Source: Schmidtea nova
Taxonomy: Eukaryota
DNA length: 63,737 bases
Assembly (NCBI GenBank): GCA_044892505.1
Contig: CM097883.1
Coordinates: forward strand, 257,734,001 to 257,797,737
Direction of reading: 5' to 3'
This document shows, piece by piece, positions 24,649 to 63,731 of the stretch (position 1 is the stretch's first letter; the number at the start of each line of letters is the position of its first letter). The notes under the pieces are model-generated. The model saw only the letters and a list, made by a program, of their open reading frames with translations. It was not told the DNA's origin and made no database searches. A program made the translations under genes and the position numbers.

Positions 24649-24756
24649 TTTTATTAGGGTAAATAAAATTTTATTGGATTATGCACATGTAATTATGTAA
24701 TCACTATTAAGCGTATAATTAAGATCAATTTTTATTTTTTATTGAGATTGTGGAAA

Positions 24757-24793
24757 GCCTGATGATGACAGCTAAGCTGTTGAAATATATTGC
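24757..24793 (+). ncRNA. Minimal hammerhead ribozyme motif in Penelope pseudo-LTR (mirror copy on minus strand ~23575-23611)
   Basis: gc-CTGATGA-t-gacagc(taa)gctgtt-GAAA-tatat-t-gc. Confidence 0.72.
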
Positions 24794-28747: not shown

Positions 28748-29248
28748 TCACACGATAATAAGAAATCTAAAATGTCTATCCTCAATAATTAATTTTATAT
28801 CGATAATAATATTATCAACTATATTACAATAATCCTTAGTTTTTAACTCTAATATAACTACTTTACCGCTAGTAAATATATTAACACACATAGGATTATA
28901 TTTCATAAATCTCAAAGCTGGAAATATTTCTGGCCCGTAAACACAGTCCAATAATTTAGACAAAGTATTTAAATTACAACAAAATCCCAGGTCTACCGTT
29001 ACAGGAATTGATTTTATTTTTAAATCATAAATCTTTACTTTTTCGTCACTTATAAATTCCTTGCATACCATAATTCTAAATCTACCATTTTTAAAATATA
29101 TTATCAAGTTCTTACCACTTCTATCAATAATTTGCTGTGTTTTCACCTTTTGGAAATTCACGTGAGATACATCAGTTTTACCCTTATAATTTATGTTGCT
29201 ATTCATTACTTTATTACTTATTTTTAAATATGAGAACAACAATGACAA
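28748..29248 (-). CDS. Divergent TATA-binding-protein-fold ORF inside the Polinton remnant
   Basis: VTVDLGFCCNLNTLS...YGPEIFPALRF...P.CVNIFTSGKVVI resembles a TBP repeat (YEPE.FPGL...IF.SGKVV); IIYFKNGRFRI as first-repeat trace; first ATG at 29206. Confidence 0.7.
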   Translation of the reverse strand: MSLLFSYLKISNKVMNSNINYKGKTDVSHVNFQKVKTQQIIDRSGKNLIIYFKNGRFRIMVCKEFISDEKVKIYDLKIKSIPVTVDLGFCCNLNTLSKLLDCVYGPEIFPALRFMKYNPMCVNIFTSGKVVILELKTKDYCNIVDNIIIDIKLIIEDRHFRFLIIV

Positions 29249-29311
29249 CTATTATTTAAAACAAATATAAACAAATATAAACAATAATAATAAAATAATA
29301 AAATTAGAAAT

Positions 29312-29938
29312 ATGGAATTAAGAAATGATGCAGTTTTTCAAATTGTTGGCCCAAGCGGGAGTGGAAAAACTTTGTTTGTTTGTAAATTATTACAATCAAA
29401 ATTATCCAAGTCCAAATTTAATGAAACATATTGGCATATGAGAGCGGATGATGAACATGGAATTACTCAAGATCAATTTTGTAAAATAAAAATGACAATA
29501 ATAAAAGGTTTCGATAAATATTGGTCTACTAAATTACGACAAGGTGATGTGATTATTATTGATAACTTGTATTAAGAAGCAAAAAAGAAAAAAAAGGATT
29601 TTAATAACTAATTTACAAAGTTCGCTATACACAAAGGTGTTACAGTTATTTTTATTACTCAGAATTTATTTCATCAGGGTGGCAGTCATCGACCTCGTAA
29701 TTTGAATGTTCAATATCTAGTTGTTTTTAAAAAACCTAGAGATGCAACAGTCATTGATTTTCTTGCAAGACAATCATACCCTTCTAATCGTAATTTCTTG
29801 ATTGATGCGTTTCAAGATGCTACAAAAGCTCCTTATGGATATCTTTTTCTTGATTTCACTCAACAATGTAGTGATGATTTAAGAGTTAAAACAGATATTT
29901 TCAACAAAGAAGGAGCCATGGTTTATAAACAAAGTTAA
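29312..29938 (+). pseudogene. Polinton packaging ATPase (A32/FtsK-like), with stops
   Basis: Walker A GPSGSGKT, Walker B IIIDN, then FITQNLF and APYGYLFLDF; in-frame stops. Confidence 0.88.
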
Positions 29939-30290
29939 CTAGATGTATATTATCAATCATGTTAATGAAATCTCGAGTAAAGTTTTCGCGTTTGATAAAT
30001 GATAGAAAAGCAGAAACAAGGAAAAACAAAGAAAATAGGAAAACAAAGAAACTTGGAATAACAAAGAAACCAATTTCAAAATCTAGTTATACACAATTGA
30101 AAAAATTTATTATGGATAAAATTCCAAAGAGTAATAGTATTCAAAATACTTTAAAACCACAACCAAAACAAATAGATCATCGTAGTTAATGCATTACTTA
30201 AACCCCCTTATATTAGAAGAATGAGTATTTTACAATCGTTTTCTAATTACGTTATTGACGATTTACTAATGATTTTAATTAAAGTTGTTA

Positions 30291-31584
30291 CGTGGTGCGG
30301 TCAAAAAGTTTCCGGCCTACCCCAGAAAAAGTAAATGCAAGAAAGCACAACTATATTTTTATCAACACCAATACCATTACTTCTCGAACCAATTACCTCC
30401 GGCATCTACACACTTCTGCCAACGACCAGGGAGGGCTTCGAATGCCCCATACTAAAATGAGGGTGGAAGCTGGTCAAAAATCCGATTTACAGCCTACTCT
30501 AAATCGCCTGCATCCATGAAATACTCTCCCCGCAGTTGATTCTTCAATTCCGTAAATAGGCAGTAATCTGAGGGAGCCAAATCAGGGCTGTATGGAGGGT
30601 GGCTAATGATTTCGAAGCCACAGTCATTGAATTTTGTTTGGGCAATGCGGCTGGTGTGAACTGGCGCATTGTCATGTTGAAACCAGTGAGGGAGACCATA
30701 TGGTTTTCGGCACTTTCTACGAGCTTGCTCAACGAGATTACCGTAATATTCTCCGCTGATTGTCCGTCCCTTCTCAAGAAAGTCGGTGAGGATCACTCCC
30801 TTATGACTCCAAAACACAGTCAACATGAGTTCCCGTCTGTGCGACATTCCGGAACGAGACTTCCAAACTTTTCCTTCTTCCGGCTTTCTCCATTCCATAG
30901 ACTCCCGCTTTGATTCAGGCTGATGTAGGGGTAACGGTGTCTCATCACAAGTGAGAATGTTTTGGATAAATCTTTCTCCATACTTGCGGTAAATGGCGAG
31001 GTTCATGAGACACGCATTCTTTCGGTTATTGCACATCTCAGTTGTCAAAAAGCGAGGCACAAACCGAGACACCACCTTGTTGAAGTTAAGGTCTTTCAAT
31101 AATTGCACTACGGTGCCGTGTGATATTTGTAGGGATTCTTCCAGCTGCCTGGTAGTTATACGGCGATCTTCCAGTACCATTTTCTCCAATTTTTCCTTCA
31201 CATCTTCATTTCTCAAAGTCTTTGGTCGACCCTCTCGTTCCTCATCTGACACACTTTGCCGACCCCGTTTGAATTCAGCAATCCAAAACTTGATGGTAGA
31301 CTGAGAGAGACACTTTTTGCCATAGGCTCGATTCAGATTTACCATGATTTCCTGGTTGGTTTAGCCGAGAAGAACACAAAAGCGAATAGCACTGCGATAC
31401 TCAATTTTTTCCAGCGAACGCACTTGCAATGACATTTCCATCTGCAACAGATAAAGTAAATGGATTAGGTCAATAATATTTTCAACATGAAATTGTCAAT
31501 AAATTTCCAATAAAATAAACCTATTTCCATTAAAAAATCAATTTGTTAAGTAGGGTATGTCGGAAACCTTTTGACCGCACCACG
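30291..31584 (-). mobile_element. mariner (DD34D) transposon, 1294 bp
   Basis: TIRs cgtggtgcggtcaaaa / ttttgaccgcaccacg; TA TSD at 30289-30290 and 31585-31586. Confidence 0.95.
30340..31345 (-). pseudogene. mariner transposase with premature stop at 30494
   Basis: FVPRFLT, TCDET, HDNAPVH, YSPDLAPSDY; C-terminal tail disrupted. Confidence 0.9.
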
Positions 31585-32053
31585 TAAAGGTAAAATCAAT
31601 ATAAGTGAATCAAATAGAAGGGTTTTGAATAAACACAAGAAACCACTGCGTAAAATAATATATAAAAAACAAGGAGGATATATTGCAGCATAGCTACCAT
31701 TAGCATTATCACTATTGATTGGTGCTGGTTTATTAGGAAAACGGTCATAAACAATGGGTCAGTCGTTGCCTAATATTAATTTAAACTTTAAATCTTATTG
31801 TTGTAATGGAGAAGATTTGGAAGAACCCAAAACACGAAGCAGGTTTCAGTGGAGTAGAAAAGCTAAGCAAAAATGTATTGAAGTCAAAATAACAGACTCA
31901 AAGTTGATTATCGGGGAAACTTGCATACATTTTAAACAAACCGATGCTGAAACGGTTTCCAACTTGAGCATATAAAAATATAGAATTAATGATTTGTGGC
32001 AAAAGGATTTAATGGAAATGATTCCATATTCAACAATTAACAAGAGATACAAG

Positions 32054-32844
32054 TGTTGGGTATTTGCGATGTTTAGTCGGTGCTGTTAGTCTGACTCCTC
32101 GGTGTTCTTTAAATTTGATTCAATAAAATAACCCAAACACAGAAGAATTTATTTGTAACAATCACACTTTTTGACACACTAAGTCTCTTTAAAATTTCAC
32201 AATAACTTTTATCACTGCTTCTCCGACTTCGCGTAGGGATAAGTCTCCCCAAGGAAGATCTCCCTTTCTGGTACGCTGGAATAATAAATTTGGTTTGGAA
32301 CTTTTCAAATATCGCTCTTAACTCCTCACTTGCTGAATTCACTCACTTTTGCTTCGACCATTCTGGCGAACTTCAGTATTTGTCGTTCCCTTTTATACTG
32401 CTTCTGATGATTGGTTTTCCACTTTGCTGCAGCTGTCAAATGGTAGTACGATTTGACGTTTTAATTTTCCATCTGTCGGTTACTCTCCGGGTCTCCTCCA
32501 AAGTTATTTTTCTCAGGAATTATTACCTGTCATATTGCTTGTCCGGGTTCTCCATAGTCTCGGGTTTCCCATTTGCTCGGGCTTTCCCTTAGCCAATTAA
32601 TTATTAATTAATATTTTAATATTTTAATTATTTCTTTCTGGGGACCCCCCATTGACTTTGTTTTATTATTTTTGGATTCGTTTCAATATTCGGCATCCAC
32701 CCATACCAATTTCCCCCGCTAATTCTCTGTTTCCGAATTTTTCCTAAATTTTAATTAATTTTGAAAATTTTATACGTTATTGATTTTTAATAAGTTTTTA
32801 TGATTTTTATTTTTGTATTTTCCTAATTTTTACTAAACCCCAAC
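32054..32844 (-). mobile_element. Solo LTR, 791 bp
   Basis: TG...CA with 8-bp inverted ends tgttgggt/acccaaca; 4-bp TSD CAAG; excision restores integrase NKRYKYIL; minus strand has TATAAAA then AATAAA. Confidence 0.85.
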
Positions 32845-32988
32845 ACAAGTATATTTTGATATGTGTTGATGTTTACAGTCGTTTTGCTCGGGCTATTCCA
32901 GTAAAATCTAAATCTGCTAATGAAATAGCTATTGCAATCAAAACAATGTTCAAAAGTGGACATCCAACTAATTTACAAACTGATTTGG

Positions 32989-33029
32989 GTAAGATATAAT
33001 TATTTATAAAATGATAATTATGTATCTAG
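32989..33029 (+). other. 41-bp GT-AG intron candidate in Polinton integrase
   Basis: ttg g|gtaagat...atctag|gt aat gaa ttt tac; removal restores QTDLGNEFYN. Confidence 0.72.
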
Positions 33030-33638
33030 GTAATGAATTTTACAATAGCAAAGTCAAAGAAATTATAAAAGGAATCATTACTCAGTATTCTCCCAATTCA
33101 AAGCAGCCCATGTTGAAAGATTTAATCGTACATTGAGAAATCGTCTGAAGAAATTTTTTGTGCATCAAGGGAATAAAACATGGATTAATGTTTGACCACA
33201 AATTATTCATAGTTATAATCATTCTACTCATCGGGGTATACATGGAAGGAAACCTGCTGAAGTAGTTGATACTAAAAATATTTTGAGTGATACGAAAATA
33301 AAGAAACCAAAATAGAAAATAGGTAATTATGTTCGAATTAGTAAAATTAGTGCATCACCTTTCATTAAAAATTTTGATAGTAATTGGAGCGATGAGGTAT
33401 CGAAAATATCGAAAGTCAACATAGTCCAGAATCCTTTCATGTATACTATTTCTGATTCTAATAGCAATATAGTCAGTGGAAAATTCTATAAACAAGAATT
33501 ACAAGTTATTCCCCCTCCAACGATATTTAGAATTCAAAAAATATTGAAAACTAAAATGGTTAGTAAAGAAAGACAATATTATGTCAAGTGGCATGGATAT
33601 AAAGAACCGTCAAGGATATCGTCAAAAAACCTCGTAAA

Positions 33639-34094
33639 ATGAATTTTTATACAATTTTACCAAGCAATAGTTGTCCCGATATACATCCCAATAATACTGC
33701 CAGTAAATTCATAATTAATTTAAAAAAACAGATTTATTTAGAAGGTATTTGGGAAGTCGCTCTCTTGGACTTAACGTTTGCGTATAATCCATTTCCATTT
33801 TATAGTAAAGCTGAAATCCGGTACAAAATTAACATTTTGCACTCAAAATATAAAAATTTGGTAATTGACAATCAACTAGATGAAGTTGATATATCTAATC
33901 CTGCAGATGATTTTGCTCAAAAGTCTAGCAATAATAATTTTATTCATTTCACCTGTGATTATTATCCCTTCACTATAACATTTGATACTTTGGCGATGGC
34001 GAAAAGATTAAGATTACAGAAACAGAGTTATCAAAGTCCTACGGATACATACAAGATGCCGTTACCTAAATATATCAAAGTTGGAGAAAGGTAG
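33639..34094 (+). pseudogene. Polinton minor capsid (penton-like) N-terminal part
   Basis: MNFYTILPSNS...PNNTASKF...L...IYLEGIWEVAL. Confidence 0.8.
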
Positions 34095-34399
34095 GAAAAT
34101 AAAAGAATAAAGATAGAGTACAGGATGATACGGCATTTTCATATAAATTTAAAGATAACTTATCCATATCGAAACTAGATGAAATGCAATCATATTTGAT
34201 ACAAATTTGATTCAAATTCATTTTGAATCCGGATATTAGTGAAATTACTTTTGACAGAAACCTTGTAAAAACATTGGTATAAGGGACAGCAACATATGCT
34301 CAAGATGAATATTTCAATGAATGTAGGAATAAATAAACCGAAAATAATCAGACGTCTACTTTGGGCGGTGAACTTTAGATTGATGTTTACAGTAAACCA

Positions 34400-34600
34400 G
34401 ATCGAATACATGTAATTGATCCCTTTGTATATTATTATCCCAATTTATTAATTCGAAAATTGCAAACTCTAGGTAAACGTATTGTGTATAATAGAATTCG
34501 ATATCAACATCCATTAACAATTACTTGTGGTGAACATTGCCTTGCATGGTTGAAATCTATGTTTAAAAAATTTTATTTTAATAAATTTTTTTTGAAAAAA
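34400..34600 (+). pseudogene. Adenain-type cysteine protease C-terminal fragment
   Basis: IDPF...KRIVYNRIRYQHPLTITCGEHCLAWL (Q...CG..C). Confidence 0.72.
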
Positions 34601-35017
34601 TGTCTTGTTATTTTAATGATATATAAGGATATAATGAAATGGTTTGAACAACTATTAAGAAATTATGCATTATGAATGATAATAGTGTTTTCACACCAGA
34701 GTATTACATATACAGCAATTTATCTTTCTGGCCTGATCATTTAGAATGGTTTGAAGAACAAGATTATTTTTGCCCAAAATGTATTATGAACGATATTAAA
34801 AATAAAGGAGCTATTTTCTATGTTACAGATAATGAAAAATGCAAGTTTTGAAGAAATATTTCCCGAAATTAAGATTAATTAAATATAATTATAAAGAAGT
34901 TGAATTTGTTCCAGATAATATTTCATGTCCCTATAAAGATCATTGCATGTGTACCTATAAATGGCGCTTGTCTGGTGTTATTGATTATTTGAAACAATAA
35001 ATGTATTGTGTTTTTAA

Positions 35018-47599: not shown

Positions 47600-49817
47600 T
47601 GAATTGTCAGATCAAAAGAGGTTTAATATTTACATACTTTTATAATTAAAACAAATGTATTTTACAAAACATTATAATAATTTAAATTAATTTAAATTAA
47701 TTTAATTAATACTATTTATATTTAATTACACAAAGTTTGGTATGAAAGTACCAAATTTTAGCTGAATGTGCAATATTACTTATTGCACAATCTTTCAACA
47801 GTGTCTTAATTCTTTTCTCCTGGACCCCCATATTTAATAATAGATTCATTGTCTTAGGTTCGAATGATCCCAAGGAGCGAATTATACAAGTAAAAAATTC
47901 AACTTTAAAGTCTGGTTTAACTGCTTGTATCTCAGATCTTAGATTTTCGTATTTTTCCAAGTTTAGTTTGTCACTCAACTCAACGTTTGAAACAGAATCA
48001 ACTGGACATTTCATGTCTACTAAAAGTATTGTATTCGTTTCAGTATTTGTTATTAAAAAGTCAACGCGTTCAGTCGAATTCGGTGAAAGGGAACATTTGT
48101 GATCGACGACAACGAGTAAATTTGGATTTTTAAGTTCATTTTTGATTTTATCTATACAAGCATTGTGTTTATTTGTAGCTAAAGATTGATTGATTTTACA
48201 TTTTTGTAAAACGTGAAGTATCGTTTCATCCTCAGATTTACACCTACGACACAGATGATTCTCGCCAGTTTTATGTGGTTTGGCAAATGTTGAGAGAGTT
48301 TTGTTCGTGCATGATGAACGAATTTCCATTCGAATTCTGTCAAATCACTCCGGAAAATAAGCTTATTTACAAGAGGACAGAATTTAATCGCAGAGACGAG
48401 AAGATTACTATGATTACTCATTTCCCATTTTTCGAGATATGAAACTTGTATTGCAGAATGCAATATTTTTGACAACGCCTTTCTTAGAGTTGGTTATAAG
48501 ATGCGTGTGCCAGTTAATGTTGTAGTGATACGAATTGAAAGATTTTCTTTGCCAGTTTCAAATAATAGTTTGATGATGTGAACTCTGGCAAAGTAAGCAA
48601 TAGATGTTCTTAATCGGTAAAAGCGAGTTTTACCACCGCTGTGATTTTGTTTACTCTCTTTTCCATTAACCCATTCTAAAGAGTTGGATTTTTAATTTCA
48701 AGTCTTGGACTCGTAACAAACAAGAGTGAAAAGGTATTTATCGTTTTCGAGTATTTGCAAGGTGATTTTAGCAAACGATAAAAGTATACAATCGTCTATG
48801 CAAGCAGATCTATGCAACCAGCTCCACCAGTTTCCGTTGCATTATAAAAATAACTAATTTCATAATAGTTCGGTAAGTTTAAAATCTTTTTTAAATGGCT
48901 TCTCAGTAGACTAGTATTATTAACATTTATTCTTGAATTATTTTGGGGATTAGCAAAAGAACTGGTTTTTATTTCCCTAGTTCTAATTGGAAAAATAAGC
49001 CAAGAATGCAAAAACATTTTATAAGCCTTAAGTTTTTGCCAGCCATGAAGATCAGAATTAGCAATCTTTTTAGTGTCTTCAATGACTTTTCTGACGATTT
49101 CATAGGGACTTTGATGATTATTCTCACCTGTTGGTACACCCAAATATTGGTAAAATTCATTTGTCGTTATCTTTTTTATGTATTCTTTGTTGACATCAAT
49201 TTCACTTACAATTTCAACCTTTGGATATTGAATATATGCGCATTTTTCAGGACGATATTCAAATCCGATTTCATTAGCAGTACTGATAGCAATGTCTATC
49301 AATGTCTGTAAATTAAATGTATTCGTCGCGATAAGAACTATGTCATCTGCATAAGCCAACACTTGTACAGGAGAAGTCCTTATCATAAATGGATTAACAT
49401 TCGACAAGTTTATAGCTTCAAGAACTGGATTGATGGCTATTGAAGAGTATCATTGAGATTGGACAACCTTGCTTGACACCTTTCTTTTTCAGAATGTCTG
49501 GTGTCTGCGTTTTTTAGGCAATAAAATGAGCTTGTGTCTGTGTAAATTAGTTTTAATATCTTTTCACTAAACGTTCATGTGTCTTAAAAGTGTCCACATG
49601 TAGTCCTGTGGAACACTACCGAACGCGTCTTTTATGTCGAGCCAAGCTATAGTCACAGGTAAGGATTTACTATATTTCGATTGTTCGACAATCGCAGAAA
49701 GAATTGAATTATGTTCAATACATCCCTCGAATTCCGAACCACCCTTTTGGCCAACGTGTAATAGTGAGTTATTTCTGATCCACATATTAAGACGATAGTA
49801 GACAGAAGTGTGCACCA
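47600..49817 (-). mobile_element. 5'-truncated non-LTR retrotransposon with restriction-like endonuclease (R2/NeSL-type), defective
   Basis: WLDIKDAFGSVP, KGVKQGCPIS, YADDIVL, CCHC (CRRCKSEDETILHVLQKC), REL (RVDFLI...LVDMK...KY); frameshifts. Confidence 0.88.
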
Positions 49818-51030: not shown

Positions 51031-51803
51031 AAAGCTTTATTAAGAATTTTATTGTCAAATGATTCGAGCAAAATGATTCGAGCAAAATGATTCGATATTA
51101 GAGACAATATAGCGATTTGACCAACATTGTGTGTCGACAGAACTGAAGGCTCATCGTAATGAAATAATAAAGTTTCGAAAATAGAAAGGTCACAATTAAA
51201 GTTATCTAATTTCACAAATTTGGCACAACCATCAGGTTCGGCACCTGGTTTTGCAGACGAGAATCCTTTATATCCTAACTGAAGCATTGCTGGTTCGATG
51301 TCAGATAAGTAATATGAAATTTCAACTTCTTGGAGACAGAAAATGTCACAATTTAAATTCTCCAGATCCTTCTTAATATTTATCCATCGAATTGGCCAGT
51401 CAAGAAATCTCTGATCGCAATTTTCATAAAGAACATAACCATTAACCAAATGACATTGAGCCAAAATATTGAGACTGGAACTCATCATTTGAAAACCAAA
51501 TTTCCCGAACCATAGCATAGAAAACTTCCTTTTAAAACAAATTCTTCCATTCAAAATTTCATATCCAAACTTAAAAGACCGAAATTTCCCGAACAGTTAA
51601 ACTAAATTGCAATATTTAAACAATTCCAAAAATTCTACCTGAAATTCAATTCTCAAATTAATTACAACTCGAACGCGCACACAGACGCGAATAAACACAA
51701 CACCACAGACGGTGAGGGAAAAACGCGCACACAGACGCGATAAGTTATTAACAAACGCACAAAAAACAGCCAAAGTTTGCTCAGGCAAACCTTGGCTGAA
51801 ACA
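51031..51803 (-). repeat. BEL element 3' LTR (contains Angel-like fragment; distal end in gap)
   Basis: Starts TGTTTCAG directly after the polypurine tract; matches 62991-63726. Confidence 0.85.
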
Positions 51804-51867: not shown

Positions 51868-53562
51868 TCAATTCCTAACTTTATTTTTCCACTTCGGCTT
51901 ATACTTATATCTGTCACTGAACTTTTCTTCAGCCAATAATCCTCTCATGGTATCCTGGATACACCCCCTCCAACATATGGACATTTTTATTTCCAAATTT
52001 ACTGTTGCCAATTTATCGTTAATATCATTTACATATCTCGTTCCCACTGCTAACATTTCTTCAGTTTCCGCACAATTATTTATTTTTTCTTCTAATCTTT
52101 TAATTTCACTTTTATATTCCAATTCGCCCGTTTTTATTTTACTTTCAAGATTTTCTATCCTTGAATGAAGTTGTGTTACTAAATCCGACTTATCAACAAG
52201 AACTTCATTATCAACAGTTGAACCATGATCAACTTTGTCAAATGATCCAATTTTATCGTCACTAGCTACATCTTTACCTTCTATCGGAAGATAAGCTGAC
52301 TGCTCACTACCTGTTTTCTCTGCCATTATAACTGGACAATTTATTCGTTCAATCGTTTCTACTTTTTCACATTTAAATCTGACATTTTTTATAACTTTTC
52401 CATTATCTTCTAGATTTGTTTCACTTTTATTAACTTTTCCCTCGTCACTTTTATCCACATTGGAATTTTCCACTATTCCTTGCCTAATATTTTCACCATT
52501 AAGGGAATTCTCTCCAATGATTTCCTCAAAATTACAATTTTCTTCAATATCGCTAATATTTTCCACAATTTTCTCATCGACAATGCAGTTTTCTTCAAAA
52601 TTATTCTCATTTACTGCCTGCTCATTTTTTACTGACATTGTAGATTCAATTTTCGTCATTACTTCTTGCACTAAATCGTTTGAAGAAGTATTTATTCCAT
52701 CCTCGTTTGCAATATCAACCGACTCAGAGTTATCAACCATTTTACTAGACACACCACTATTCACTGCGCTATTCTTACCTCGACCTGAAATCAAAACGCC
52801 ATCACTAGTCCGAACCTCCCCAAGAACTACTTCCTGAGCTTTAGGTGCAAAACTCTCGATACATTCCTCTTCACACTGTTCTCTTTGACAAGTCTCCATT
52901 AACAAACTTTTATTCTCGGCTGTCTTTTTACTGTCATCCATTTTACCAAATATGTTATCATTTATTGTGTTATCTTCATTTTGACAAAACCTCATGTTTT
53001 CTGTATGTGTTTCTTCAACTTCCTGGTATCGTTGGAGCTGTTGTTGTGACACTTCATTCGTTGTAAAATATGATTGAATGAAGTGAGTCTGTCCACAGCT
53101 CGGAATGCCTGATCGTTCTTTCCCGATGCAAGTCCATCCCAATGGAGTTAACCTAGCTATCGGTTCTCCTTCACGTCCCCATATCTCTTTAATTGCTTTT
53201 TGTAGACCTGCATAGTCAGCCCCAAGAAGCGCATCTACCGATAATCTACTTCCAGCCGTTGCAAATCTGATTCGTCTCAAATGGTCCCAGTTCTGACTTG
53301 CTTTTTTCCAATCGGTCACTCGCAAATCACTTGTTACCTTCTCTACCGACCAAGCATGAAATTCTTTGACCATCATACCATTTACACTCATTAAGTTCAT
53401 TGTGACTCTCTGCGCCTCCAAATTTTCCCTTTTGCCTCCTATTACTCTAACTGGAACATTAACTTTTGATCCTGATAATTGTAATTCTCTAGACACATAC
53501 ATACTAACATAACTAACCGTACTTGCATCATCTAGTAATGCGTTAACATTATTCTTTTTCCC
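51868..53562 (-). CDS. BEL aspartic protease followed by long acidic low-complexity region in place of RT-RH-IN
   Basis: NVNALLDDASTVSY, ALLGADY, PIARLTPLGWTCIG, then ~400 aa E/N/K-rich sequence; frame is -1 relative to gag. Confidence 0.75.
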   Translation of the reverse strand, partial: GKKNNVNALLDDASTVSYVSMYVSRELQLSGSKVNVPVRVIGGKRENLEAQRVTMNLMSVNGMMVKEFHAWSVEKVTSDLRVTDWKKASQNWDHLRRIRFATAGSRLSVDALLGADYAGLQKAIKEIWGREGEPIARLTPLGWTCIGKERSGIPSCGQTHFIQSYFTTNEVSQQQLQRYQEVEETHTENMRFCQNEDNTINDNIFGKMDDSKKTAENKSLLMETCQREQCEEECIESFAPKAQEVVLGEVRTSDGVLISGRGKNSAVNSGVSSKMVDNSESVDIANEDGINTSSNDLVQEVMTKIESTMSVKNEQAVNENNFEENCIVDEKIVENISDIEENCNFEEIIGENSLNGENIRQGIVENSNVDKSDEGKVNKSETNLEDNGKVIKNVRFKCEKVETIERINCPVIMAEKTGSEQSAYLPIEGKDVASDDKIGSFDKVDHGSTVDNEVLVDKSDLVTQLHSRIENLESKIKTGELEYKSEIKRLEEKINNCAETEEMLAVGTRYVNDINDKLATVNLEIKMSICWRGCIQDTMRGLLAEEKFSDRYKYKPKWKNKVRN

Positions 53563-53760
53563 TTCGATTCTAAAATGATAGGTATCGTCCTGAGGCTTAT
53601 GTAACCCATATCATTTGACTTTCTATTTGTAACCATTCTAGTAACATGTGTTTGGGGTTTTTGATTGCTGTCCTCTTCTGATTCCTTTTCTCTTCGACTA
53701 TGCAACAAACTATGATGTTTTCCCTTACAGTCTTTTTCCTTACAAAATCCTGGTCTGGTG
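53532..53760 (-). pseudogene. BEL Gag C-terminal remainder (third zinc knuckle)
   Basis: TRPGFCKEKDCKGKHHSLLH continues [14 protein letters not shown] across the Gypsy insertion. Confidence 0.85.
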
Positions 53761-54483
53761 TGTGGTGATTCATGCATAGGCATCTGACCACACAGGTTGT
53801 ATGTGTCCAATTGACATTTTGTGGTCGCCTATATTTTGTAATTTTTGTAAAAACTTTCAATTAATTTTTATGTTTGTTGATATTAATATTAATATTAATA
53901 TTGGTGTTGATATTAATATTGATTGTTATTGGTGTTAAGATTAATTTTAATTGTTGTATGAATATGAATATTAATATTAATATTAATTGTTATGAATATT
54001 AATTTTTTGTAGAAAAAGAAAAACTTTGGCGTATTTATAAATAAACATTTACAGTGTTAAAATTGTTTTAATTTCAAATTAAATATTATTTCCAAGTTGC
54101 AAATATTACCTGATTTCAAAAGAATATCACATTTAGAATAATGAATATAGAAAGTAGCAATGAAAAATATTATCCCATAGCTGTTCTAATTGAAGAACTT
54201 AGAAATGATGATGTTCAGTTGCGATTAAATAGCATAAAACGCCTAACAACTATATCATTAGCACTGGGTGCTGAGCGAACTCGATCTGAATTAATTCCGT
54301 TTCTAACAGAAACTATATACGATGAAGATGAAGTCTTGCTAGCTCTTGCAGAACAATTAGCCAATTTCATATCTTATGTTGGTGGACCAGAATACGTTTA
54401 TACCTTGTTACCACCTCTAGAAAATTTAGCAATCGTAGAAGAATCAATTCAAAAGCAGCGGATCCCGGACGTCGTAACCCACA
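53761..54483 (+). repeat. Gypsy 5' LTR
   Basis: Matches 59632-60354 except G54381/A60252; overlapping TATAAA (54036) and AATAAA (54040). Confidence 0.95.
54141..54443 (+). other. Captured intronless fragment of PP2A 65-kDa scaffold subunit A (first HEAT repeats); second copy at 60012-60314
   Basis: [25 protein letters not shown]...[29 protein letters not shown]...GGPEY...[13 protein letters not shown] closely matches PPP2R1A residues ~1-101. Confidence 0.95.
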
Positions 54484-56096
54484 AAATGGTGTCAGAAGTG
54501 GCAGAAGGTATTCTTGTTTCTACGTCTCTAAATGCGCGAGACGAAGTCGTGCGACAGTCCGGACCACTGGAGACTCATACTCCTACCACTGCGGACGTCT
54601 GGGCCAGATTTGTTGATGTCCAGCATGTTTCTCTCGTGGCAAACTACGATCTCCTCACTATCCGAGAACTTTACTTTCAAGGTAACCACATTATGTTAAA
54701 TATTGTTCACCTTTTCAATTTGTGTGGTCTAGGCTTTTTGTGTGTTGTCGCCACATTAACACCCTTACCTGTTCCCTTATCCGGGGGGTCTAACCTCAAT
54801 ATACATAAAGTACCTTGCACTGACATAATGGCAAATGATCAGGGCCATGCCGCCCTACGTGCTTCTGAGGGTTTTGTTTTTGTCTCAACATCAGACAAGA
54901 ACCGGATACTTCCCTTTAGTTTAAGCCTATCCTTTAAAGGACTTCTCAGTTACCTAAAATATGAGAAAAATGTTTACATAAATGACACGTATGCTACATA
55001 CAGGGGTTTTGTACATAGATTCGACGATCGACCCTTATATGAGCATATAAATGCTGGCGACACTATATATTTGCGGTACCGTATGCGCGGGGGCGCAGAC
55101 AGCGACAATTCGTCTGTTTCAGACCAACCGCCTTCGCCTGGGACTACACAGCCAGACATCCCAACATCAATGCACAATTTGCCCAAGATTCCGTTCTTTT
55201 TGGATCAGAACGGATCTCCAGCATCCTGGTTTTTTGTACTGGAAAGACATTTTAGGATCAGGACAATCATATCATCCTCCGAAATGTTCGACCACTTGAT
55301 CACCTGTTTGCAAACGGAACTACTTTCGAAATTGGCTCATAATTTCTTGACCATTTCTACTTCTGCTGACCCGTACACAGCTCTTAAGAATCTAGTCCTC
55401 GAGAATTATCGCGAACCTAAGGCCGATATTTTCTCGCATTACTTCAAGGCACAGTCTCTCGGGTTACAACGTCCATCCGAATTCCTCAAAAGAGCCATTG
55501 ATAACCTCGAATCCTTACAACAAGGTATCACTACCGACGACTCTCTGCTTCGTAGATTTTTTTTGTCGGCTTTGCCACCTCAGACACAGGCAATATTGGC
55601 AGTTACGGAGTCAACCAACCTCCGGGATCTCGCCAATATGGCAGATAAAATCGCCGAAGCATCGGGCGTTAGCACTTCGCAACAGTGCAACCAAGTCAAT
55701 TCGTTTGAGACTTTAGCCGCTGATACAGCCAGTTCAGCAAAGCGAAACATCCAGAGTTCAGATATCGTTTTGGCTGCAATTGAGCAGATATCTGATCGAT
55801 TGAAGAAAATTGAGGCTCGGGATGAAAGACGGTCATCTCCGCACAGACGCACCTTTTCTCGTGAACGTTCTTTTCCCCGTTCTAAGAAGATTTGCTACTA
55901 TCACGAAAGATTCGATAGAAAAGCTCAAAAATGCCACATAGGTTGCGAATATGCAGACAGGAGTTCAAGCTGTGAGCTTTTAGATGTCTGCGTCTATCAT
56001 GGGAGATACAGGCAAGCAGCCAAATACTGTTTAGAAGGCTGCAGGTATTTCAAAAGTAATCCAGCACCGCAGAACAAGTCACATCCAAAAAACTAG
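54141..56096 (+). CDS. Chimeric ORF1: PP2A scaffold A N-terminal fragment, linker, ubiquitin-like domain (RMRGG), CsRn1-type Gag with two CHCC motifs
   Basis: 651-aa uninterrupted ORF from an LTR-internal ATG; Gag with [18 protein letters not shown] and [18 protein letters not shown]. Confidence 0.88.
54487..54501 (+). other. Primer-binding site complementary to tRNA-Leu 3' end
   Basis: TGGTGTCAGAAGTGG is the complement of CCACTTCTGACACCA, 3 nt after the LTR end. Confidence 0.85.
54870..55094 (+). other. Divergent ubiquitin-like domain immediately before Gag
   Basis: 75 aa, FVFVST...YRG...[24 protein letters not shown] follows the ubiquitin pattern IFVKT...FAG...[25 protein letters not shown]. 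Confidence 0.68.
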
Positions 56097-56135
56097 TCTC
56101 GCCATCTCTGTACGCGGCATGCACAGATGGCAATC
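56087..56135 (+). promoter_or_regulatory. Programmed -1 ribosomal frameshift signal (gag to pol)
   Basis: A AAA AAC (56087-56093) just before the gag stop, 7-nt spacer, hairpin gccatct...agatggc; -1 frame open into FLVDTGS. Confidence 0.85.
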
Positions 56136-59100
56136 TCTTTTCTTCTTCCCTTTCTTTTTCATTTTTTGTTTCCGCCCAAATTATTTCACCTCTCTGTACA
56201 GACATAGCACGCAACACCATACAATTTCTAGTAGACACCGGATCTAGCATCTCTCTTTTGCCCAAGTCATTGTACAGACCATGCCAACCGGGCAAATTAC
56301 ATTTGAGAACTGCCAATGGCAACCAGATGTACACTTCTGGTACATGCAACATCACACTCCGTCTGCTTGATCAAATAGTCAATTGGACTTTTCACATTGC
56401 GGAAGTCACACACCCGATATTAGGTATTGACTTCTTACAAGCGTACAGCATTACGTTAAATTGTGAGCAACACAGTTTATCATTCTCCAAGCCGATTTCA
56501 GCTTCTTCCAATGAACTTAAAACGAGTCCCAAACCTTCTTCCTGCAACGCAAAAGCCTTTGCGGTCGACAGCATTCATAATGATTTTGTTAAGAATCTCA
56601 GTTCACACAACATTTTTTCGGACATTGTGGGACCAATCAAAAGAGAAGTCAGCTCGAACTTCTGTCACGAAATTACAACTTCCGACTCGCACCCTCTCAG
56701 AGAGAGAGTTCGTCCAATCTCGGAAGACAAATATAACTTTCTCAAGACTGAGTATGAATCTCTTTTGGCTAGTGGCATTATCCAACGATCCTCCTCACCT
56801 TGGGCCTCACCCATTCACTTCGTGACCAAAAAGGATGGATCTTATCGGATATGTGGCGATTACCGCCGCCTTAACAACATAACGCAGCACGACTCTTATC
56901 CGATGCCACTCATTAATGAATCTCTGACGCGTTTCTCTAACTGCAAGATTTTCTCTACATTTGACCTAGTCAAAGCTTATCATCAAATCCCTGTTGCTCC
57001 ACGGGATGTACCAAAAACAGCCGTCATCACTCCAATCGGTCTGTTCGAGTTCTTGCGAATGCCTTTCGGCTTGCGTAATGCAGCACAAACCTTCCAAAGG
57101 CACATCGATCACATCTTGTCAGATTTAAATTTTGTCGTCGCGTACGTGGACGACATATTAATCGGTTCCCCCGATGTTGAGACTCACAAGGCACATCTAC
57201 GTAAGCTCGTAGCTACATTAAACAAAAATCAATTAAGAGTTAATTTGTCTAAATGTAAATTTTTTCAACATCAAGTTGATTTTCTTGGACACACACTATC
57301 TGCAGACGGAATAGCTCCACAATCAGCTCGTTTAGAATCCATCAGGAACTTCTCTAAGCCTGAAACTGTAACGCAGCTTCGCAGTTTTTTAGGTGTTGTC
57401 AATTATTGTCATCGATTCATACCAAATGTTTCGAATGTTCTCGCTCCATTGACATCACTCAGCTCAGGACCGAAACGTTCCATCGTAAAATGGACAGATA
57501 AATCCAATGCTGCGTTTGGAGAAGCAAAAAGAGCACTCGAGTCAATTCAGACTTTAGCTTACCCAAGGCATTCCCTTCCGTACAGCCTAACGACAGATGC
57601 ATCCGATGTTGCAGTCGGAGCTGTCCTAACTCAGTCACAAGACGGAATAGTTCGACCTCTCGAATTCTTTTCGAAAAAGCTAACCGAAACACAGACTAGA
57701 TATTCAGCTTTTGATCGCGAGCTCTTAGCCATCTTTCTTTCGGTTAAGCACTTCAAACATCTGCTGGAAGGAAAATCCACCACGGTTTATACTGATCACA
57801 AGCCGTTGGTTCACATAACTACAATGAAAGATCCTTCTCCAAGGCAATTACATCAAATCTCCTTTATCACAGAGTTCACCAGTGATATCAGACATATAGC
57901 TGGAAAGGATAACATCATAGCTGATTTTCTGTCTCGCAGTACAAACGCAATTTCGTTAGGACCTTTATTCACTACTTCCACTCTACGAGATAACAAACCA
58001 ACAGAAGCCGATCTTCGGTATTTTCTACACAATAAATCAAATATCGACGGAATCGATTTTGACTCCTCACTCTCAGGTGTACTTAGACCAATTCTTGGAA
58101 CTGAGCTTCGTCGACCCGCATTTCATGCAGTTCATAACTTACACCATCCTGGAACAACAGCCACTTATCAGCTGCTAAGAAACCAGGTCGTTTGGCCTTC
58201 TATGAGGCGAGATGTGAAACTGTGGGTTAGCGAATGTCTAAAATGTCAATGCAATAAAGTAACCCGACACATCAAACCACCGATCACGCACTTTCCAACC
58301 GGTAACCGGTTCGATGTCGTTCACATCGATCTTGTTGGTCCTTTGCCGATAGACAACGGTTTTTCATATCTTCTAACCATGATTGATAGGAAGACAAGAT
58401 GGTTTGAAGTCGTTCCTCTACGATCCATATCAGCAAATATTGTTGCAGAAACTTTTATATCAGAATGGGTCGCACGTTATGGCATTCCAAGACACATAAT
58501 TAGCGATCGAGGAGCCCAATTCGAATCGCAACTCTTCACTTCTTTAACAGAACAGCTTGGCATTAAACGGCTGCGTTCTACAGCTTATCATCCACAGACG
58601 AACGGTCTCATTGAAAGGTTTCACCGGACACTCAAGCACTCGCTCCGAATACTCTCTTTAAATCATCGTTGGACGAAAGCCTTGCCTTTCGTTTTATTGG
58701 GTTGGAGGAACACACCTTCTAAGACGACTGAGTCATCCCCAGCTCAATTACTCTTCGGTACCAACACTACGGTACCTAACGAACTAATTGACTTAGGAAA
58801 TGAAACAACACTCGAAGAACTTGGCACCGCCAGACGCCATTTCCTGGATATTGATAGCAATCCTATATTTTCGTCTGCCAACGCACACAAACCTTTTATA
58901 CCAAAATCTCTATCTTCAGCCAAGTTCGTTTGGATCCGCACAATCTCGGACTCAGCGTTGAAGCCTAGGTATACTGGACCTTATCGCCTACTAGGCATAA
59001 TCGGAAATTACGCCACTGTCAAGATGAACGATTCATCTGAGACAATCGCTCTGGCACGAATCAAACCAGCTTTTGGATTATCGGAATTCTTAGACTATAA

Positions 59101-59506
59101 CGCCAAAGAATTCATTCCAACCCCTACAGATAATTCCTTCCAATCTGATGACACCTCTCCAAGTACCAGTCTTCCACGATCTCAGCCGGACTTGGATAGT
59201 AAAATTCATTCGCCAACAACTCCTACTGAGGACACTACGTTATACCATTCCGATTTCTCTCCTACAAACCTGGACCAAGCACCTTCGCACTCTGATGGTA
59301 CTCACATTACCGTTAGACCCGAAACAAGCTCTTCACCTGCTTGTAGCGAGTTGCCAACTCCAGTTCCAATTTTGAAGAAATTGACACAAGTTCAACTTCC
59401 ATCAGGATCTACTAGGAAGCGCCGTGTTTCCATCAACCCGTGGGTGCGCGAACGTCGTATTGGGGACAATCCCAATGCTCCCACCAGACTCCACCGCATT
59501 TTTTGA
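56093..59506 (+). CDS. Gypsy Pol (protease-RT-RNase H-integrase), intact
   Basis: FLVDTGS, YVDD, FDRELLA, HHCC finger, HIDLVG / SDRG / ERFH, YTGPY; no stops. Confidence 0.95.
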
Positions 59507-59620
59507 AACGCATCCTCTCAACATTCCATCATTTTCTTTCTTCCTTCTTTTTCTTTTTCTTCTTTTTTCTTTGCCGCCAACACATTCTTTTCACCACACA
59601 CTACTGCTCCGCAGCTTTCG

Positions 59621-59631
59621 TAGGGGGCTAA
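59621..59631 (+). other. Short polypurine tract of Gypsy element
   Basis: tagggggctaa directly before the 3' LTR TG. Confidence 0.65.
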
Positions 59632-60354
59632 TGTGGTGATTCATGCATAGGCATCTGACCACACAGGTTGTATGTGTCCAATTGACATTTTGTGGTCGCC
59701 TATATTTTGTAATTTTTGTAAAAACTTTCAATTAATTTTTATGTTTGTTGATATTAATATTAATATTAATATTGGTGTTGATATTAATATTGATTGTTAT
59801 TGGTGTTAAGATTAATTTTAATTGTTGTATGAATATGAATATTAATATTAATATTAATTGTTATGAATATTAATTTTTTGTAGAAAAAGAAAAACTTTGG
59901 CGTATTTATAAATAAACATTTACAGTGTTAAAATTGTTTTAATTTCAAATTAAATATTATTTCCAAGTTGCAAATATTACCTGATTTCAAAAGAATATCA
60001 CATTTAGAATAATGAATATAGAAAGTAGCAATGAAAAATATTATCCCATAGCTGTTCTAATTGAAGAACTTAGAAATGATGATGTTCAGTTGCGATTAAA
60101 TAGCATAAAACGCCTAACAACTATATCATTAGCACTGGGTGCTGAGCGAACTCGATCTGAATTAATTCCGTTTCTAACAGAAACTATATACGATGAAGAT
60201 GAAGTCTTGCTAGCTCTTGCAGAACAATTAGCCAATTTCATATCTTATGTTAGTGGACCAGAATACGTTTATACCTTGTTACCACCTCTAGAAAATTTAG
60301 CAATCGTAGAAGAATCAATTCAAAAGCAGCGGATCCCGGACGTCGTAACCCACA
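59632..60354 (+). repeat. Gypsy 3' LTR (contains PP2A-A fragment)
   Basis: 723 bp, offset 5871 from the 5' LTR. Confidence 0.95.
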
Positions 60355-63300
60355 TGGTGCATTCTCTCACTCCATGTCCTTTCCTTAAGCAGTTATAACA
60401 TAATCTCCACTCTTGAACTAACTTTTTTCTGTCATTTACTGGCAATTGTTTGAATTGTGAGCATTGATCTAGATAATGTGCACCCGGACATTGGAAACAC
60501 ATCGACCTGCTTTGACCTTGTTGCATGATTATTCCTTCCCCACCTTTACTCGAGTTTTGTTTTACTTCATTGCCCGAGTTCGTAAAGTGTGAGTACCGTC
60601 TATTGTCATTCTTTTCGGAAGCCTTGAAGTTCTTCTGCCCATACTGCCAATTAGAGTCTTTTTCACGCCAAAATCCATATAATATCTCATTTGTCGATCG
60701 CGTAAGATCAGCTTCGTTTTGCAACCTCTCTTTTAACCGGGTTATTGATTCTTCCCCTTCATCTTTCGCTTGCTCTCTTTTCCATCGAATAAGTAGCGAA
60801 GCTGGCAATTTCTTTAACAATTGTTGCAAGAGACAGCCTCTCTGTAAGTCCTCTTCCCTTCCGATTGCTTTAAACCGTACCTCCATTGACTCCAACAATC
60901 CAACGAGAATATCCAAGTCTTTCATCTCTACTTCGCGAACCGGTCGAAATTTCTCTACGGTCTCTAACATAGTCAGATAACTACGTTCTTCACCTCCGTA
61001 ACGCCTTTCTAATTTCTCTTTCGCCATCTTGTAGCCATCGGCGGTATAACCCAGTGGCTCTATCATTCTCAGCGGCTCATCTAGCAAGTACTGCCTAAGA
61101 TGCAGCATTTTATCTTCGGCTGTTCCATCTGCCGTATCTATTACCGTATTGAAGGCCGCTTTCCACGTCTCAAACTCGACAACCTTCCCATCGAAAATCG
61201 GAATCTTTATTTTCTGCAACCGATTTAAACTCTTCTTTTCTCTTGGCGCTTCATATTCCGATGTCTTTGACCCCTCGCTCACAACACTTTGTTCTGTTCT
61301 TTTTTGCATTATCTTATCTATCTCTTCTTTTTTTGTTTCCAGCTCACAGATATCTTTTTCCACTAATTCTAACTCCTCCTTCTTGTTTAATTTGTCACAC
61401 AGCTCGACAAGTCTTAACCAATCTTCCAATGTATCCTCAAACTCTTTTTCATATAATACAAGTGTGTCCTTTATTTCCCCGACCATTTCTGCCAACAATA
61501 AGTTACGCGCTCGAGTTACTTTCCATTTTTTAGATCGCCGACGGGTCCATAAACTTTTGAACTCTTCCTCATCATTACCACCTCTTAAACGAAGAACAAG
61601 ATGAAGAGTAGATTCCTTTTGTATGTTGTAATCTGCCAAGATTCTTCCGCCTTCCAATTGTTTACCCGCAAATATCAATCTCTGTTGATCAGGTGGGATT
61701 CCCTCTTTATCTTGTATTCTCGTTTTTACCTTTTCTATTGTGTCACTTGATTCAACTTCCAGGGTAATGGTTTTCCCTGTTAACGTTCTTACAAATATTT
61801 GCAATCCCCCTTCCATTCTCAAAACTAGACCGCGAGTTGATTCCTTGGTGGGAATAGTCGTATTTCGATTAATTAACTTACTGAAAACGCCGCCCAGAGT
61901 TTCAACACCCAACGAAAGCGGTGTAACATCTAGCAATAATACCTCAATCACATACTCAGCAAGAACTCCTCCCTGTATTGCTGCACCCATTGCAACAGCT
62001 TCATCTGAATTCACACTCTTGCTAGGGGCTCTACCAAAATGTTTCTGCACAGTTTCTTGAACTTTAGGCATTCTTGTCATCCCACCAACTAACAACACTT
62101 CTTTAATATCCGATGTTTTTACCTTTGCATCTTTAATAGCCTTTTCACAAGATTCAATTGTTCTCTTAATTAGGTGCTCCACTAATTGTTCTAACTTTGA
62201 CCGTGTGAACCTTAAACTCAAATGTTTAGGTCCCGTATTATCCATTGTCAAATATGGAAGATTAATGTCCGTTTGAATAACCGATGACAATTCAATTTTA
62301 GCTTTTTCAGCTGCTTCTCTAACTCTCTGTAAAGCCATAGGGTCTTTATCAACATCAACGCCTTGATCACATTTAAATTCATAAAGAATATTTTGTAAGT
62401 GCACATTATCAAAATCTTCCCCACCCAAAAACGTATCCCCACTTGTAGATTTTACTTCAAAACTATTATTCAGATTTTTTATATAACTATCTAGCTTTAG
62501 CTTAATGATTTCCCAGTTGAAACACCCATAATTGATTTTAAATCCATAATTTTTAACCTCTCGCCCTATCTCTCTAATCATCGCTGTATTATAAATTATT
62601 TCTTTTGGAACACACTCCTTATTCACACAAGTCCCACCCATTTTATTTTTTCCAATTAAAGGAACAGATTTCCTATATTCATCTGCTCTCCTGGCTCGTT
62701 CATCCCCCAATTGAAAAGAATGCTGGGGCCCATAGCAGCATCTTTTCCGGTCCCTTAATGGACTCAACTCACCGCAAAACTTGTCAAAGGGCAGAGGGGA
62801 AAATGTTTCAACACAGGATAAAAATTTACAATTCATAAAATAATGTTCAAAGATATTACAAAAATACAGATTAAGAAAAGGTACCTTGTTCTGGCTGGAT
62901 AGCCAGAACAGTATTGCCCATGTTCCGAGAAGTACGTGGTCCCCCGATGGGAACCACGCTCTGCTACCAAAAATGATTCCATCAAAACGCAAAGCTTTAT
63001 TAAGAATTTTATTGTCAAATGATTCGAGCAAAATGATTCGAGCAAAATGATTCGATATTAGAGACAATATAGCGATTTGACCAACATTGTGTGTCGACAG
63101 AACTGAAGGCTCATCGTAATGAAATAATAAAGTTTCGAAAATAGAAAGGTCACAATTAAAGTTATCTAATTTCACAAATTTGGCACAACCATCAGGTTCG
63201 GCACCTGGTTTTGCAGACGAGAATCCTTTATATCCTAACTGAAGCATCGCTGGTTCGATGTCAGATAAGTAATATGAAATTTCAACTTCTTGGAGACAGA

Positions 63301-63556
63301 AAATGTCACAATTTAAATTCTCCAGATCCTTCTTAATATTTATCCATCGAATTGGCCAGTCAAGAAATCTCTGATCGCAATTTTCATAAAGAACATAACC
63401 ATTAACCAAATGACATTGAGCCAAAATATTGAGACTGGAACTCATCATTTGAAAACCAAATTTCCCGAACCATAGCATAGAAAACTTCCTTTTAAAACAA
63501 ATTCTTCCCTTCAAAATTTCATATCCAAACTTAAAAGACCGAAATTTCCCGAACAA
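60320..63556 (-). CDS. Chimeric polyprotein: Angel-like, glutathione reductase, mitochondrial-type HSP70 and ubiquitin fragments fused to BEL/Pao Gag; truncated by the Gypsy insertion
   Basis: 1078-codon uninterrupted frame; first in-frame ATG at 63478; domain motifs listed in the sub-features. Confidence 0.9.
60360..61576 (-). other. BEL/Pao Gag
   Basis: [21 protein letters not shown]...KMLHLRQYL...KEKLERRYG; [13 protein letters not shown] and [14 protein letters not shown]. Confidence 0.9.
61577..61804 (-). other. Captured ubiquitin unit, 76 aa, intact LRLRGG
   Basis: [18 protein letters not shown]...[14 protein letters not shown]; nine differences from canonical animal ubiquitin by eye. 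Confidence 0.97.
61844..62461 (-). other. Captured intronless fragment of mitochondrial/DnaK-type HSP70
   Basis: [80 protein letters not shown]. Confidence 0.95.
62462..62710 (-). other. Captured fragment of glutathione reductase (redox-active disulfide region)
   Basis: ARRADEY...[21 protein letters not shown]...YGF...FNWEIIK.K.DSYI..LN aligns with GSR GGTCVNVGCVPKKVMWNTA...FNWRVIKEKRDAYV. Confidence 0.88.
62952..62969 (-). other. Primer-binding site resembling initiator tRNA-Met 3' end
   Basis: TGGTAGCAGAGCGTGGTT is the complement of AACCACGCTCTGCTACCA, 4 nt after LTR-terminal CA (62974). Confidence 0.8.
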
Positions 63557-63731
63557 TTAAACTAAATTGCAATATTTAAACAATTCCAAAAATTCTACCT
63601 GAAATTCAATTCTCAAATCAATTACAACTCGAACGCGCACACAGACGCGAATAAACACAACACCACAGACGGTGAGGGAAAAACGCGCATACAGACGCGA
63701 TAAGTTATTAACAAACGCACAAAAAATGACA
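62974..63731 (-). repeat. BEL element 5' LTR (start tentative, near window edge)
   Basis: Direct repeat of 51031-51776; ends ...GGAATCA before the PBS; possible start TGTCA at 63731. Confidence 0.82.
63059..63454 (-). other. Captured fragment of an Angel/CCR4-nocturnin family (EEP) gene; second copy at ~51099-51494
   Basis: LNILAQ...LYENC....LDW..RW..I...L....CDIFCLQEV...LGY...PDGCA...NVGQIAIL most resembles the ANGEL N-terminal half of the EEP domain. Confidence 0.85.

Follow-up and report, generated by a model that had tools for sequence, protein, structure and literature searches.

The question raised by this locus of Schmidtea nova is how a retrotransposon could obtain a Gag protein with a defined N-terminus when this Gag lacks its own start codon and lies behind a chain of captured host sequences. 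The window (the whole stretch analysed, 63,737 nucleotides of contig CM097883.1, positions 257,734,001 to 257,797,737) is AT-rich animal DNA which carries, on the minus strand, a long terminal repeat (LTR) element with a BEL/Pao-type Gag; the assembly contains 11 N gaps, none of them within the HSP70-ubiquitin junction of this element. From comparison of the element with its relatives, we propose that host deubiquitinases (DUBs) probably cut between Gly76 of a captured ubiquitin and the first Asn of Gag (61577/61576), and so release Gag from a disposable leader.

The minus-strand open reading frame (ORF) 63556-60320 is a single open frame, whose first ATG (63478) lies inside the 5' LTR. It encodes, in this order and all in frame, an Angel-like piece, glutathione reductase, mitochondrial HSP70 (mortalin), a 14-residue ubiquitin tail, a whole ubiquitin and Gag (coordinates of all these features refer to the minus strand). 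An earlier note on this DNA had read the succession from HSP70 through an eroded ubiquitin tail and a whole ubiquitin to Gag, and this reading holds for both residues and codons; the HSP70 can now be specified as mortalin. The mortalin piece (61844..62461; ORF residues 366-571; Pfam HSP70 1e-85) contains no intron or stop and is identical at 178 of 206 positions (86%) to the mortalin of Dugesia japonica (P0278), its closest named relative; other flatworms reach 75-78%. By these identities, the host would very probably be a triclad planarian. The upstream ubiquitin tail (residues 63-76, eroded) occupies 61805..61846, and is followed by the whole unit (61577..61804; Pfam ubiquitin 8.3e-28), which is near-complete, in frame and directly before Gag, as in pestivirus-type insertions. 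With 68 of its 76 residues identical to the best named host-type unit, it ends in LRLRGG, after which Asn, the first residue of Gag, follows directly. For DUB cleavage, the residue after LRGG should be non-proline.

The whole unit is not pristine. Its Met1 reads as Leu (TTG, 61804), as the earlier note had stated, and it is altered at the invariant positions K6R, N25K, K29R, D52G and T55I, whereas L8, I44, V70 and residues 63-76 are all host-type. The eight residues preceding it (the end of the upstream tail) outscored all 121,376 control 8-mers, and the upstream tail is therefore real. The upstream site (61805) consists of 14 residues only and ends in MEGG, rather than of a ubiquitin body plus LRGG.

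The evidence which carries the proposal comes from relatives. A query including ubiquitin gave polyubiquitins only among the 120 matches listed; hence, relatives were collected with Gag-only queries from which ubiquitin was excluded, and 154 were obtained. Ten of these align from the Gag N-terminus, and in eight of the ten a ubiquitin or ubiquitin-like tail stands directly before Gag (five of the eight reach Pfam ubiquitin significance). The di-Gly (GG) lies in the same register in seven of the eight: P0121, P0125, P0136 (8 residues only), P0139, P0154, P0188 and P0217. The remaining two of the ten, P0127 and P0145, start with their own Met and fall outside the clade described below. GG-motif matches in P0155 and P0193 were discarded, as they are located inside Gag. 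The window element, the eight relatives and two further proteins, predicted sequences of which begin within Gag, group in one clade of 11 members (SH-like approximate likelihood-ratio test support of 98 in a quick, large tree of 105 rows, which left out 50 of the 154 relatives as too short, and 100/99 in a more carefully built one of 38 rows).

The GG-Gag join is ungapped against P0125 at 39% identity, and relatives reach up to ~48% Gag identity. In the six relatives with measurable ubiquitin bodies, 181 of 287 positions (63%) are host-type, and 15 of the 16 terminal glycines survive in the eight relatives (p ~0.007 if the rows are independent, an optimistic value, since the relatives are interrelated). 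Buried core residues, Leu71 and Leu73 are kept; Ile44, Val70, Arg72 and Arg74 vary, so that the L8/I44/V70 patch is not conserved in relatives. This comparison shows that the GG-Gag boundary is a clade trait in the same register: the clade has a Gag without its own start codon, behind a ubiquitin or ubiquitin-like domain ending in di-Gly. Moreover, P0121 has a Pao-type reverse transcriptase (RT) and Peptidase_A17, and the trait is therefore not confined to defective copies.

Some further features of the clade were recorded. GG is followed by Asn, Gln, Gly, Ser or Met, never by Pro. K6R is common to the window unit, P0188 and P0217, and K29R is also found in P0125. In P0139, an HSP90 piece (within residues 76-149) is followed by an 8-residue linker resembling a second eroded tail, before ubiquitin-Gag; the score of this linker was equalled by 245 of the 121,376 controls. 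With HSP90, the clade has a second passenger of the chaperone kind. P0136 has CCCH zinc-finger and CFAP58-like matches (residues 431-453 and 920-993), perhaps further captured host pieces.

The proposed mechanism would begin with translation from the LTR ATG through the Angel, glutathione reductase and mortalin pieces, ubiquitin and Gag in one open frame. A DUB cut after Gly76 would then yield Gag with a defined N-terminus, and the upstream leader would be free to be swapped or to decay, provided that the frame is kept. The nearest known parallel is found in cytopathic pestiviruses (strains Osloss, CP1 and CP Rit of BVDV, bovine viral diarrhea virus), where host ubiquitin mRNA was likewise captured in frame as a processing signal. 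Cellular hydrolases are reported to cut after the ubiquitin so that the next protein gets its proper N-terminus, and the inserts may be mosaic, present in one or two copies, or devoid of their first residues (PMC8310069, PMC13517609, PMC2850149). In BVDV CP Rit, cellular hydrolases are reported to cut even a ubiquitin which follows an S27a piece and has lost its first three residues, and NS3 thereby receives its proper end (PMC8310069); the loss of Met1 in the window element would therefore be harmless. The pestivirus inserts are sporadic, occur in an RNA virus and release NS3, whereas here we deal with a fixed trait of a deep LTR-retrotransposon clade, placed before Gag. Cleavage has been shown for pestiviruses; for the element it is deduced from sequence, and the module of the element has seemingly been renewed from host mRNA. 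By analogy, the element would work like the pestivirus ubiquitin processing signal, and would have arisen like known LTR-mediated retrocopies.

Several observations weigh against this proposal. The nearest relative, P0126, ends in KEG instead of GG; R72 and R74 vary in relatives; an upstream tail is present in only one of the four testable relatives (the other three have none); and the copy in the window is interrupted and lacks RT and integrase. An in-frame ATG (61816) offers another start, the erosion of the upstream tail exceeds the passenger rate, and the ubiquitin of this copy is no more constrained than its HSP70. The last three points are considered below.

The earlier note had contrasted an eroded upstream site with an intact Gag-proximal one, and had concluded that selection keeps only the Gag-releasing site. 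The contrast itself stands, as four of the 14 invariant positions are changed in the upstream tail and none of the 14 in the downstream tail, but alone it is not significant (Fisher p=0.098). We used the HSP70 piece as a passenger clock, taking near-invariant columns from 59 named references and excluding columns where the piece matches Dugesia (P0275 and P0276 were left out of the HSP70 set as suspected internal duplications, judged from inflated scores); invariant ubiquitin positions were taken from 1,033 units in 89 named proteins. HSP70 is changed at 7 of 122 near-invariant columns (5.7%) and ubiquitin residues 2-76 at 5 of 70 (p=0.76), which gives no sign of greater constraint on the ubiquitin of this copy. 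At the passenger rate, the probability of an unchanged downstream tail is 0.44, and that of an intact L8/I44/V70 patch is 0.84. The patch, which had been taken as a sign of selection, loses that meaning, the more so as it varies in relatives, and selection on the Gag-proximal site finds its support not in this copy but in the relatives, of which seven of eight keep GG while their ubiquitin bodies are only 63% host-type.

The upstream tail changed faster than its surroundings: 4/14 exceeds the rate of HSP70 (p=0.016) and that of the whole unit (5/70; p=0.038), both comparisons being post hoc. Simple neutral decay is therefore not a full account of its erosion. One explanation would be that both GG sites were cleavable at capture, and that selection removed the upstream one and kept the Gag-proximal one. 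The excess of changes agrees with this, as do the changes at Leu73 and Arg74, and P0139 may have the same pattern. However, LRGG is reported not to be enough for DUBs, which also depend on the ubiquitin surface and cleave tetrapeptides very poorly (10.1101/2020.01.30.926881); a 14-residue tail does not provide that surface. Both glycines of the upstream site are still present, two of the four changes (at 67 and 68) lie far from the bond, and the erosion tests, besides being post hoc, concern one copy. We regard this explanation as rather unlikely. Since DUBs require more than LRGG, the upstream GG, having no ubiquitin body, has probably at no time been a real or competing site: with no folded ubiquitin before it, it would have been a poor substrate from the start and would have decayed like a passenger, to which capture probably added further damage.

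Such damage may account for the erosion of the tail. If the erosion arose at capture, through error-prone copying or short extra switches close to the template-switch point, it would represent one event of clustered changes. The 15 codons next to the junction contain at least seven nucleotide changes, the 75 that follow only five; in two codons a double change is required, and two of the altered codons are neighbours. De novo sequence has been described at some junctions of LTR-mediated captures (PMC5131818). On the other side, four search patterns revealed no sequence elsewhere in the window that could have served as template for the altered tail. We consider an origin at capture possible, though less likely than not; it is compatible with release by DUBs and does not exclude it. 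The excess of changes may also be due to chance.

The in-frame ATG at 61816 was created by the change at position 73 of the upstream tail. It precedes the lost Met1 by four codons and is flanked by A at -3 and G at +4. Start codons are favoured by such a context, and trans-splicing is known in planarians. Gag might consequently be made from this internal ATG on a spliced or trans-spliced message, as a short ubiquitin-Gag precursor, the long leader remaining untranslated. This is difficult to reconcile with the state of the leader, in which 634 codons are open from ATG 63478 to Gly76, whereas the other two frames contain 42 and 74 stops. The chance of a stop-free leader with two in-frame host-to-host joins is ~0.004-0.017 at 7.3% erosion and ~0.009-0.025 at 5.7% erosion (hand calculation), which argues that the leader frame has probably been kept open by selection. 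In addition, three of the four testable relatives have no Met at ubiquitin position 1. We therefore consider an internal start unlikely, and a DUB cut would free Gag even if it were used.

A different role for the domain would be to stay attached to Gag, or to serve mainly as a degradation, sorting or decoy signal. The replacement of two lysines by Arg (K6R, K29R) and the absence of GG from P0126 are in keeping with this. Ubiquitin receptors bind the Ile44 patch; conservation in the clade, however, centres on Leu71, Leu73 and GG, not on that patch, and this role appears improbable.

Finally, the arrangement might be a neutral chimera or an assembly artefact without function. The copy is interrupted and non-autonomous, the assembly contains the 11 N gaps mentioned above, and LTR elements are known to capture multiple genes (PMC5131818). 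The same GG-Gag register nevertheless recurs in seven independent relatives with Gag identity of up to ~48%, the junction is gap-free and the frame is open throughout. We give this explanation very little credit, and the comparison with relatives largely refutes it.

The origin of the ubiquitin may be reconstructed in part. It matches host-type units at 68 of 76 positions, as against 32 of 62 for the ubiquitin of P0125. The GC content at third codon positions (GC3) is 0.28 for ubiquitin, 0.28 for HSP70 and 0.43 for Gag (p=0.015). Its invariant sites have changed as rapidly as those of HSP70, which speaks against long, strict conservation of this ubiquitin. In the simplest history, a recently acquired ubiquitin would have replaced an older ubiquitin-like domain, from host polyubiquitin mRNA. 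This donor had already been suggested in the earlier note, and the arrangement of a tail followed by a whole unit supports it. Inside the old ubiquitin-like domain, the RT would have changed to polyubiquitin mRNA as its template and gone on for 14 codons into the preceding ubiquitin unit, before moving over to mortalin mRNA where the two share a short K-x-S overlap. We infer the order of these switches from the direction of reverse transcription, and did not observe it.

The shared sequence AAGGAATC had been put forward as the microhomology between HSP70 and ubiquitin. It is present at 61846 and 61618, in both cases as ubiquitin codons 63-65 (the 8-mer also occurs at two unrelated places in the window), and it shows paralogy between the tail and the whole unit; it says nothing about HSP70. 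A short overlap between the two donors is nevertheless plausible at the protein and codon level. The mortalin junction region reads NTTIPTKKSQ in 57 of 59 named mortalins. When its codons are set against ubiquitin Q-K-E-S-T, identity is possible at Lys, at 2/3 nucleotides of the next codon and at 3/3 of Ser, with none in the flanking codons; the K-x-S overlap amounts to at most 3 exact nucleotides or 8/9. Of the 46,740 in-frame joins that Dugesia mortalin and ubiquitin could form, one adjacent residue is shared in 12.5%, and a pattern as good as the present one in 2.6%. Codon-level comparison with both donors places the crossover within AAG GAA TCA (K-E-S; 61838..61846), which is as fine a placement as it allows. 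In Drosophila, microsimilarity was found at 25 of 29 LTR-mediated junctions, with a median of 6 bp (PMC5131818). The K-x-S overlap is suggestively in line with such lengths.

The other host pieces of the leader are likewise uninterrupted, which makes four such pieces; microsimilarity-guided LTR retroposition would call for intron-less partial host mRNAs between LTRs. The Angel/CCR4-family deadenylase piece (63065..63463; ORF residues 32-164) lies inside the LTR and matches ANGEL2 (6rvz_A) with a phmmer E-value of 2.7e-17; the label "nocturnin" was dropped, as its E-value was 3e-4. The glutathione reductase piece (62468..62698; ORF residues 287-363) has a phmmer E-value of 1.6e-14 and a GC3 of 0.275. 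At its junction with HSP70 (62470-62461), the Asn-Ser codons are assigned to neither donor, and one redox-motif Cys region is altered.

The element has a 5' LTR at 62974..63731, which contains the first in-frame ATG and the Angel-like piece and is 99.3% identical to 51031-51766 over 736 nt; the 3' LTR (51031..51768) ends in an N gap. The LTRs flank the genes, and their length of ~0.76 kb is within the Belpaoviridae range of 0.2-1.2 kb. A primer-binding-site-like sequence, TGGTAGCAG... (62952..62969), presumably of the initiator-Met tRNA type, is read through by the leader ORF. Belpaoviridae have a tRNA-Arg or tRNA-Gly site and then a non-coding region; here, a TGG-starting site follows the 5' LTR and the region downstream is an open frame. 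No tRNA genes were found within the window. A purine-rich stretch ends ~35 nt before the 3' LTR and may be a counterpart of the polypurine tract that precedes this LTR in Belpaoviridae.

Gag (60355..61576) is BEL-type, with DUF1759 at 61195-60767 (Pfam E 2.3e-9) and nucleocapsid zinc knuckles; it shows 38% identity to P0121, has Asn and not Met as its first residue, and is split by a nested insertion. The remaining Gag, a protease-like region and then an acidic low-complexity stretch follow at 51868..53760 (40% identity to P0121 over 203 aa, after which similarity stops). A frame change at ~53560-53540, between Gag and the protease-like region, corresponds to a place where P0121 is continuous; a lesion and a programmed shift are both possible. 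About 370 residues of acidic, low-complexity, coiled-coil-like sequence (51868-52990) occupy the place of RT and integrase, with the frame still open. Neither RT, nor RNase H, nor integrase was found in the element, whose Pol is represented by the protease-like region only (Pfam E 1.7e-4, a value that misses the cut-off). With the greater part of Pol absent, the copy is to be classed as a non-autonomous derivative of the BEL/Pao lineage and not as a full member of Belpaoviridae.

Elements of the BEL/Pao group (Belpaoviridae, including the Flow superfamily reported from Schmidtea) share with it LTRs, a DUF1759 Gag and a protease-like region. In the ICTV profile of this family, the 5' LTR is followed by a non-coding region, and ubiquitin is not part of the description (PMC8742986). 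The word "ubiquitin" occurs 0 times in the available text of a metazoan BEL/Pao survey (PMC3118150) and of a planarian genome paper (PMC11410931). Captures by the Drosophila Pao element BATUMI and by maize Bs1 resemble the present case in that partial host mRNAs of several genes are joined inside an LTR element. There, however, the host pieces replace element ORFs, while here they form an in-frame leader from the LTR to a cleavage module before Gag. The giant planarian gypsy elements Burro/GYPSM1 also carry domains resembling host ones, among them a Ubi2/SUMO-like motif in the polyprotein, but their Gag is N-terminal and the motif internal, and neither a GG-Gag release site nor an LTR-initiated leader is described in the portion of PMC6431247 that was accessible. 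No report of an LTR clade with ubiquitin-GG before Gag was found in the top literature listings, a scope outside which lie Repbase and GyDB entries, subscription journals and supplements.

If release by DUBs is right, a whole retrotransposon clade needs a host deubiquitinase, rather than its own start codon or protease, for its Gag, and a pestivirus-type trick has been fixed over long evolutionary time. It would also explain how an LTR element can harmlessly gather pieces of host mRNA in front of Gag, and would name a testable host factor of retrotransposition in a model animal where RNA interference works. The junction would be a record of an ordered chain of template switches, which can be checked against host cDNAs.

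The insertion which splits Gag is a nested Ty3/gypsy element on the plus strand (53761..60354), with 723-nt LTRs that differ at 1 position and a 5-bp target duplication (TGGTG). Its ORF starts at ATG 54141 in the LTR, encodes ~108 residues of PP2A-A (E 5e-47) and reads through the primer-binding site. Overlapping TATA-like and AATAAA motifs (54031-54046, plus strand) lie ~100 nt before the PP2A-A ATG; judging from their position, the host piece would fall in U5, preceded by a very short R region. The leader (54141-55094, plus strand) also contains a weak eIF4A-like stretch (E 5e-5) and ends in LRYRMRGG (55071-55094), ~40 residues before the DUF7041 domain of this element. In a tail matrix built from seven BEL relatives, LRYRMRGG ranked second of 35,390 windows, and its score was reached by 3 of 200 shuffles. 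Searches for a ubiquitin fold in this leader did not reveal one: Pfam gave no hit, the 76-column profile gave E 5.2 and a single-sequence AlphaFold model had a predicted local distance difference test score (pLDDT) of 34.7. Such a fold is suggested only by the tail score and by the Atlas, which returned ubiquitin-family clusters at 0.90, a mere lead.

The gypsy design possibly converges on the BEL-type leader with di-Gly before Gag. We tentatively suggest that two planarian LTR superfamilies might independently have come to use host sequence as the 5' end of their mRNA (an LTR-borne Angel or PP2A-A start), followed by a swappable host mosaic, a ubiquitin or ubiquitin-like di-Gly adapter periodically renewed from polyubiquitin mRNA and a DUB-freed Gag, although we think it less probable than not that all of these hold for both. 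If true, the adapter would make the capture of host sequence cost-free, and the captured pieces could mask the element against silencing by small RNAs or make its expression resemble that of host genes.

The remainder of the window contains diverse other sequences. Host-gene-like exons at 6393-6767 and 14630-14998 (plus strand), with long repeat-filled introns, belong to what we take to be serine palmitoyltransferase. A decayed pol on the minus strand (16859-19234) is presumably gypsy-like, and a decayed non-LTR-like RT (RVT_1) lies at 47712-49449 on the same strand. A cluster of short ORFs (28748-34675), interrupted by a mariner transposase (30494-31360; Pfam Transposase_1), presumably represents a decayed Polinton-like element with ATPase-, integrase- and capsid-like pieces. 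Inverted repeats at 23560-24808 (459 nt, 99.6%) flank a core with a 230-aa ORF, which had no Pfam hit, in a unit that we assume to be a DIRS or Penelope-type end. A 754-nt sequence is triplicated in tandem at 25259-27152.

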